Source: Styela clava (lineage: Eukaryota). From it: a DNA stretch of 64,000 nucleotides. The stretch covers positions 2,356,001 to 2,420,000 of the forward strand of contig NC_135250.1 in NCBI RefSeq assembly GCF_964204865.1. Direction: 5' to 3'. A program made the translations under genes and the position numbers. The notes below the pieces were generated by a model, which was not told where the DNA came from, ran no database searches, and worked only from the letters and a program-made list of their open reading frames with translations. This document shows positions 49,469 through 51,321 of this stretch, one piece after another (positions within the stretch are counted from its first letter, which is position 1; each line of letters starts with the position of its first letter).

Positions 49469-50661
49469 AACTAATCGACATGCAAGGTGGATGAAGGTCG
49501 TGATTCGCTATACGATGAGGGCATTAGGCTACCTTACCTAACCCAGAACACACTATAAGGCACAATTTATATACCTACTCCACTCTAACCATTAGCATTA
49601 AGTTTCATATCTCACCCAGTCGAGAACATACATCACTTCACCACCGATACGTTACAAAACACCTGGTCGCCTTCAAATTTTATTCATTTCATCACAAAAA
49701 TGTTTATGGTATAAATGCTTCTTACCAGCGGATATGGCCGAGGTTGCAACACCTGGCTACAAGGATTGGTGCAGAACACGCATCAAGTTAATACACATCT
49801 GTTGGATTAACCAAACGAAAAAAAAAAAAACTTTAGGGATTTGTGGTTTTGGATCGCTCAAACTGAAAAATGGTCTTGGGGTAAATATAAATTTGTGTAA
49901 ATTTGTTTAAAGTAAGGCCAGTATACCTTATTCAAAACTGAGAAATTTTGTTCAGTGTTATGTTATTTGCATCAATAAATATTGATACGAATGTGTTGGT
50001 TGAATAACTTTCAAACTTGACTAATTGAAAAACGCGCACCAACCACCAGAAAACGTGCAGAAACAGTGAAAACCCGTCAAAAACCACTTAAAACCTTGCA
50101 AAAACAGCGAAAAACCGTGAAAACCCATCTAAAACCTCGTGCCCAGCATATCACTAAGATATAATATAGTAATAAATATATGCGAACCGGAATGATTCTG
50201 AATTTTCCAAAAAGTAGCTTCTTGGGCTTCATTGGTTGCTTGTTCGGAGTAAACGTATAAAAAAAACTTAAAAATATTTCTTTCATTTGTGAGCGTTACG
50301 ACAAGATTAACTATGACGACTGTTAAATATTCAGTGTTACTAAAATTATTGGTTTCATTGAGTGTTTTCCTGAGTGAGTGCTTCTCGTATTAAAGTATTA
50401 AATCTTATTTGAGAGGATTGAACCACTTTTTCTGACATTTCCATTGTCAGAAAATATACCTTTATATATAAACATGCCAGAATGCGTTTTGGTAACTATC
50501 AGTTGTTGTTACGAAATATTATCTATCTTTATTGCCCAATGCCTTGATGGAAGTGAATTCGTATGCGTGTGACGCAACAATGCTGTGGCAAGAATTAAGA
50601 TGACTATACTATTTGATTCAAGAGTCTTGCTGTATACTAACACAAATGTATTTTTGTAACG

Positions 50662-50707
50662 TTTTATCTGAGGAAGTCTGACCCCGGTCAGACGAAACGT
50701 TACAGAA
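50662..50707 (+). ncRNA. Minimal hammerhead ribozyme-like motif (Penelope/retrozyme type)
   Basis: CTGAGGA (50668-74), one extra A, 7-bp stem II GTCTGAC/GTCAGAC, GAAA (50694-97), then palindromic ACGT and an imperfect stem I. Activity is not established. Confidence 0.6.
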
Positions 50708-51321
50708 ATACATTTGTGTTAGTGTGCAGGAAGACGCTTGAATCAAATAGTATGCATTTGAAGATTGGCACTTGCAATTCTTCTGTCGATACTTTTCTCC
50801 AATTTATGTCGAAATCCCGGGCTTCGAGCAAACTTGTATGAGGATAAACGGCAAAACCGCCACAAATCGCAACATTCCACTGAACCACGTAATTCGGGAG
50901 GCACACGACCATAAATAGCAGATGACTGAAATGAATACTTTTTTGTTTTGTAAATAATGCTTCAAAAACCGCCTTTTATGATGCAATAATCGTCTATAAA
51001 TCATAATTATTTACTCACTAAATATTCGCGCTTATCCCTTTATTAGCACATAATATGCTTGTGAATGATCGTTTCTACCAAACGGGAGAACAGGTTTTTG
51101 ATTGATGGCATGTGCCGATATGAGTGCTACCGCCGAACGTTACATGGCGAAGATTTTTTCATATGTAAGCGTATTCATAATCTCGACTATCGTGTAGCAA
51201 TTAATGAAAAAAAAATAGGCAAATAAAATGGCACGCCTTAGTGACAAAAATTTATGCGGAGTAAAGAAGGCACTTGTCTTTTAATATGAGATTTGTTGCG
51301 GTTTCATTGTATTAAAAATTT

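Follow-up and report, generated by a model that had tools for sequence, protein, structure and literature searches.

Minimal hammerhead ribozymes are a known component of metazoan Penelope-like elements, where they reside in the terminal repeats (pLTRs). In the metazoan elements, helix II comprises 7–8 bp and helix I 4–5 bp, an unpaired base precedes stem II, the closing pair of stem II is G10.1-C11.1 and positions 15.2–16.2 are palindromic (PMC4209133). Such ribozymes are described as not cutting as monomers and as cutting weakly in the form of dimers (PMC4209133; PMC6765202). Typical for Penelope-like elements is furthermore a forward copy whose 5' end immediately adjoins an inverted, 5'-truncated copy (PMC8557442), and in rotifer elements inverted and direct repeats were found to overlap, for which self-priming was described as cause (PMC3846280). 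Studies on a purified element showed that both strands of the DNA are cut and extended by it, and that it begins at internal positions of its RNA (PMC11167929). A second group of small hammerhead-bearing repeats, the metazoan non-LTR retrozymes, is short, non-coding, high-copy and low in GC and likewise features a type-I hammerhead (PMC7229834; bioRxiv 10.64898/2026.07.22.740005).

Among the open-access papers searched, no report on Penelope or hammerhead repeats of these tunicates (Styela, Ciona) was found. Here, we describe a locus of the tunicate Styela clava, at which a hammerhead core forms the loop of a long inverted repeat. It is situated in a stretch of 64,000 nucleotides, referred to as the window, in which two proteins match Styela clava proteins with 98–99%.

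Results

A minimal hammerhead in the loop of a long hairpin

The motif lies on the forward strand and consists of the following parts, with positions in the motif numbered according to the established hammerhead convention:

50664–50667 (+): 5' strand of stem I, TTAT, with A at 50666 instead of the family's G, giving an A·C mismatch
50668–50674 (+): catalytic core CUGANGA, here CTGAGGA, with G at N7 (50672)
50675 (+): unpaired A between positions 9 and 10.1, read from the sequence
50676–50682 and 50687–50693 (+): stem II, seven Watson-Crick pairs with G10.1-C11.1 as closing pair and loop CCCG
50694–50697 (+): GAAA
50697–50700 (+): palindromic ACGT, giving stem III only as a dimer
50701 (+): end of the cleavage triplet GTT, predicted cut after this position
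50702–50705 (+): 3' strand of stem I, ACAG

All elements named in a preliminary description of this DNA, i.e., CUGAGGA-A, a perfect 7-bp stem II, GAAA and the palindromic ACGU, are found where they had been placed, and the triplet GUU ends exactly at 50701, close to which the cut had been predicted. The single stem I mismatch of the proposed type-I fold was confirmed as well; here, the G that the family carries at 50666 has been replaced, and the only G-C pair of this stem is thereby abolished. Hammerhead models were searched, as had been suggested for a check: a descriptor of the minimal hammerhead matched once in the window and in none of 300 simulations of the window (second-order Markov, both strands), and Rfam returned no hammerhead at the gathering threshold in the window, where a tRNA was the sole listing, and none among the 16 weak matches around the locus at E ≤ 10. 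An 18-nt pattern had six matches in metagenomes, all six at chance level and lacking ribozyme context or similarity to the window, and no match in viral contigs. Judged by its anatomy, which agrees with the published minimal ribozyme (PMC4209133), the motif is a real minimal type-I hammerhead of the Penelope type, as had been suspected.

The arms of the hairpin (50606–50664 and 50695–50753), previously described as near-perfect reverse complements, indeed pair at 54 of 59 positions. Pairing extends inward to 50606–50671 and 50688–50753 (66 nt, 89%), with four U·G wobbles and three mismatches as the seven non-Watson-Crick positions, none of which is compensated. The predicted RNA fold is a single long hairpin with stem II on top (–95.9 kcal/mol; z = –18.9), and not one of 200 shuffled sequences was as stable.

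A high-copy repeat family

The 23-nt stretch following the cut site occurs five times in the window with at most three mismatches (0.01 expected), namely in both arms and in copies at 11.05, 12.65 and 55.7 kb. Sequence comparison resolved the following family members:

50493–50664 (–): inverted, 5'-truncated copy of about 170 nt, 72% over 173 nt to 12672–12842 in pairwise alignments
50664–50753 (+): forward stub, consisting of the hammerhead and 52 nt of downstream tail, with an abrupt end
50664–50671 (no strand): head-to-head junction, a short overlap of the inverted copy with the forward stub
12638–12842 (+): paralog with degenerate core and a full tail of about 165 nt
11037–11159 (+): paralog with degenerate core, family-type upstream sequence and short tail; related to the 12.6-kb copy by local duplication
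55660–55796 (–): core-less paralog, represented by the tail alone, within the intron that also harbours the hairpin

At its outer end, the inverted copy stops at the letters that also form the 3' end of the paralog at 12842; in these two copies the 3' end is located about 165 nt past the cut site, and the 55.7-kb copy ends at most about 10 nt away from it. The earlier notion of an inverted partial repeat was borne out, with one correction: beyond the left arm, which accounts for its inner third, the inverted copy continues outward to approximately 50493. Compared to the family in public reads, each arm carries private letters (left: 50633, 50635 and 50654; right: 50730 and 50736). Both degenerate paralogs are contained in a local duplication (10070–11159 and 11421–12753; 73–86% identity), which also holds minisatellites of 63 bp and 73/74 bp.

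For a survey of the family, four public DNA runs were mapped on 50350–50950 at 80% likeness; reads were accordingly recruited by likeness to this stretch, and all figures on variation refer to the difference rows listed. Raw-read depth (run X7) amounts to about 1730 at 50707–50727 and to 1–2 in the flanks, and three assembled runs contain 3398 (X1), 6111 (X2) and 296 matching contigs. With 1890 Mb read and a genome size of 340–407 Mb (PMC7540406), about 310–375 copies are estimated at 80% likeness, while local flank depth gives 900–1700. The repeat family comprises at least several hundred copies, in line with the family postulated in the preliminary description, and varies in the reads at N7 and in loop II. 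In fact, the raw reads (X7) have A instead of G at N7 in 242 of 678 cases (36%) and T instead of C at the loop II positions 50683–50685 in 44–75%, and none of the 40 difference rows listed falls on the invariant core, stem II or the GAAACGTT positions. At 50666, 69 of 94 covering reads (73%) carry G, so that stem I of the family has four pairs (UUGU with ACAG). A compensatory change in stem II (T-A for C-G) was only found in the two degenerate window paralogs (11.05 and 12.65 kb), one being a duplicate of the other. With its variation at the free N7 and loop II, the family ribozyme looks selected at the sequence level.

Loose read ends before 50667 (446 reads, X7) revealed that the upstream sequence of the family ends in ...GCTTG before T-CTGA. 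According to the loose-end consensus before 50667 and 50686, the family has two occurrences of the hexamer GUCUGA, one spanning stem I and the catalytic CUGA, the other forming the 5' strand of stem II, and the 3' strand of stem II can therefore pair with either one. A further 154 raw reads diverge past 50727 and share a 30-nt consensus (0.93 agreement); these homogeneous reads leaving at 50727 point to a young subfamily, which would be the best place for an active master.

Regarding coding capacity, Pfam scans covered 186 of the 285 window ORFs with at least 55 aa, among them every one of the 140 located beyond 34 kb, and detected neither an RT nor a GIY-YIG domain. We also considered the tail as the start of an ORF, but rejected this option: the frame is open in three of four copies, yet it shows neither a codon substitution pattern (by inspection) nor a conserved ATG. 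The three phmmer matches of the 53-aa tail frame were all tandem-repeat proteins with inflated scores.

The head-to-head junction

At the junction, the letters TCTGA (50667–50671) belong to both copies, opening the forward one and closing the inverted one. The stretch 50664–50671 is complementary to 50688–50695 at six of eight positions today and at seven of eight given the family's G at 50666; six of eight is reached by 10 of the 2628 possible 8-mer pairs in the stub. We discarded the reading that 50665–50666 is a CpG of the inverted copy with both letters decayed, as a single G>A change in the forward stem I is simpler. No target-site duplication of at least 6 nt was detected at the locus, and the outer ends of the two joined copies differ by about 110 nt, compared to the 30–40 bp of the tail that Penelope-like elements may have. 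Beyond 50753, similarity of the right copy to the left one was matched by 59 of 300 random pieces (not significant) and similarity to the 12.6-kb copy by 12 of 300 (marginal).

In the public contigs, at least 15 further distinct joints skip from one orientation to the other, every one of them found in a single contig with roughly single-copy depth and with short matched sides, mostly of 20–36 nt. We read them as other head-to-head loci, since record 7 of X1 has 1556 letters unlike the flank studied here. This record, together with record 15 of X2 (50614–50728), represents a second locus with an inverted piece and a forward copy, in which the whole core is retained. Breakpoints differ among the 15 listed junctions and only one of them (50653 to 50663) keeps the whole core, and the position of the core in the loop would therefore be incidental rather than a design of the family. 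Moreover, most of them feature 0–3 shared letters or inserted letters, and microhomology is thus not the sole route to such joints.

Discussion

We consider it likely that a high-copy Penelope-type retroelement inserted at this locus and decayed, with only its terminal repeat (pLTR) remaining, as two copies placed head to head. According to sequence and reads, the family RNA carries a minimal type-I hammerhead, placed about 165 nt before its 3' end. In a single insertion event, two 5'-truncated cDNA copies could have been joined head to head, either because one cDNA folded back or because two cDNAs, primed from both cut strands, annealed to each other. Both routes would exploit the few nucleotides by which the stem I/CUGA stretch and the 3' strand of stem II are complementary to each other, and both predict the observed junction. 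The forward copy would have stopped just past the ribozyme, leaving the core in the loop. Afterwards, the arms presumably drifted without compensation, the G-C pair of stem I was lost, and the hairpin would now sequester GAAA and the cut site.

Membership in the Penelope group is based on ribozyme type and architecture and not on a linked ORF; the family could be a non-autonomous derivative. In comparison to the minimal hammerheads in metazoan Penelope pLTRs (PMC4209133, by Cervera and de la Pena, 2014), the type-I topology, the core, the 7-bp helix II, the unpaired base, the G10.1-C11.1 pair and the palindromic positions 15.2–16.2 are the same, and a 4-bp helix I is found in the family reads. 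Copies are likewise mostly solo and truncated. Different here are the new tunicate sequence family, with no linked ORF among those scanned, and the broken stem I of the copy at 50664, the ribozyme of which is buried in a hairpin. The core is found in a terminal repeat, about 165 nt upstream of the common end, which is a Penelope trait. The same holds for the inverted 5'-truncated copy at the 5' end of the forward one, seen at this locus and at the at least 15 listed junctions, and the short overlap at the junction and the 3' end common to the copies are also shared with Pen2a of Adineta (PMC3846280) and the inverted pLTRs of PMC8557442. In contrast to these, the forward copy measures only 90 nt and is accompanied by no ORF, second pLTR or target-site duplication, and the overlap comprises 5–8 nt and lies on the ribozyme core, compared to 15 there. 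By analogy, the architecture corresponds to a known insertion by-product of Penelope-like elements, and the locus looks ordinary.

An alternative option, which we regard as unlikely, is that the family is a non-LTR retrozyme, i.e., a short non-coding tandem unit that is cut to monomers and circles and mobilised in trans, with this locus as rearranged solo derivative. The family is indeed non-coding, short and high-copy and resembles metazoan retrozymes also in its type-I hammerhead and low GC content (PMC7229834; bioRxiv 10.64898/2026.07.22.740005); according to the latter, retrozyme families often include solo monomers and have their origin in Penelope-like pLTRs. Furthermore, one contig returns from 50704 to 50676, which hints at a partial tandem. 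Against this, the four family loci of the window all lie outside the 22 tandem-repeat rows, and in view of the missing tandem unit the retrozyme label that the preliminary description had offered next to Penelope was dropped for this locus. The ribozyme is also the minimal Penelope one and not the canonical 6-bp/4-bp type described for retrozymes (PMC7229834; PMC4209133), and truncated copies are paired head to head, a Penelope trait, and not head to tail.

The locus resides in a host gene. Using tblastn, residues 1–32 of the protein P0002 (VWDE-like according to its source) were placed at 43498–43593 and residues 34–102 at 60141–60347, and together with the splice sites this gives:

43498–43594 (+): exon 1 of the VWDE-like gene
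43595–60138 (+): host intron, GT-AG, phase 1, 16.5 kb
from 60139 (+): exon 2

In this predicted gene model, hairpin and hammerhead are sense to the VWDE-like pre-mRNA. Among the samples listed as containing the stretch there was no RNA sample, which has no bearing on expression. The intron further contains a tRNA-Arg(CCT) gene in antisense orientation (47990–48063, –) and, at 52915–53572, a 657-bp segment that carries internal GGGGTTCC repeats, is flanked by 21-bp inverted repeats (95%) and is probably a non-autonomous DNA transposon. Elsewhere in the window, an NXPE4-like gene (18284–21854, –) features a first coding exon of 247 codons and 91–100% to P0001, and exons of a potassium-channel-like gene are located at 681–2120 (–), one of which carries a Pfam Ion_trans_2 domain. 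Another repeat, about 240 bp long, internally palindromic and MITE-like, is present at 28157–28395, 39532–39770, 56230–56456 and 63551–63787 with 95–98% identity, in older copies at 500–741 and 8808–9049, and in related shorter hairpins at 51314–51439, 7087–7199, 16675–16785 and 55263–55377.

The sense orientation within an intron and the very stable duplex (–96 kcal/mol) could speak for a co-opted hairpin, whose duplex of about 60 bp would feed Dicer/Drosha or ADAR and yield small RNAs silencing the other copies of the family. Such an origin has a proposed parallel in a sea anemone, where new miRNA precursors are suggested to stem from inverted duplications (bioRxiv 10.1101/2020.02.04.933887). 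We judge this improbable: three of four arm transitions give U·G rather than A·C on the transcribed strand, but this is at chance level (p about 0.3), none of the seven arm differences forms a compensatory pair, and similar hairpins are found at many other loci. By Rfam score the hairpin does not qualify as microRNA precursor either, with all miRNA matches far below gathering scores (e.g., 42.9 compared to 70 bits). One of these, an alignment below gathering to RF03760 (mir-2041) at 50639–50720, has GAAACGUUA in the 3' arm of the consensus and its complement in the 5' arm. This GAAACGUUA resembles the stretch after the GAAA of minimal hammerheads, and may stem from another Penelope-type fold-back or from chance; bioRxiv 10.1101/2020.02.04.933887 uses a miR-2041a of Nematostella to illustrate how such genes originate via inverted duplication.

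The preliminary description had left open whether the two possible folds make the locus a switch or an inactivated copy. With nearest-neighbour energies, which do not include stabilisation by ribozyme tertiary contacts or dimers, the type-I fold has an ensemble probability of about 1e-16 to 2e-16 in its context, which corresponds to an energetic cost of about 22 kcal/mol. With the left arm removed, it still reaches only about 3e-5, because the A at 50666 removes the sole G-C pair of stem I. The alternative type-III-like fold (probability 2e-3) leaves four nucleotides (UUAU) that are unable to close stem I. A conformational switch, in which an active hammerhead in the intron is controlled by the long hairpin and the host pre-mRNA is cut when the left arm is occupied or absent, could draw on the fully intact core nucleotides and on stem II, which is intact as well and forms with a probability of 0.68 even inside the hairpin. 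Nevertheless, such a switch is very improbable in view of these energies and of the missing stem I in the type-III-like fold; in addition, the left arm is transcribed first and minimal hammerheads are described as not cutting as monomers (PMC4209133). The fold energies and the lost G-C pair rather favour the inactivated copy: on the basis of these models, the hammerhead of the stub at 50664–50753 is probably dead and the locus inert. Since the G-C pair of stem I is lost and GAAA and the cut site are sequestered, the host pre-mRNA is most likely not cleaved by this copy.

An artefact, be it of assembly or of library fold-back, can practically be dismissed as source of the inverted repeat: although no contig among the pieces listed for X1 and X2 spans the whole hairpin, its arms differ at 5 of 59 sites, both flank-to-element junctions are recovered in public contigs without differences (X1 records 1 and 8; X2 record 9), and of 122 sampled words 97% and 89% are present in two samples, the better of which may be the assembly's own source.

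As a long shot, the doubled GUCUGA could serve the family both as a built-in off-state and as fold-back point of the cDNA, with intronic hairpins giving rise to small RNAs that silence the family. If true, a ribozyme would seed the host's own silencing hairpins and possibly new microRNA genes. Apart from this, the locus adds a minimal-hammerhead repeat family from a tunicate, which is of modest importance. The head-to-head junctions with their varied breakpoints constitute a data set for distinguishing cDNA fold-back from two-strand priming, an open step in the insertion mechanism of Penelope elements.
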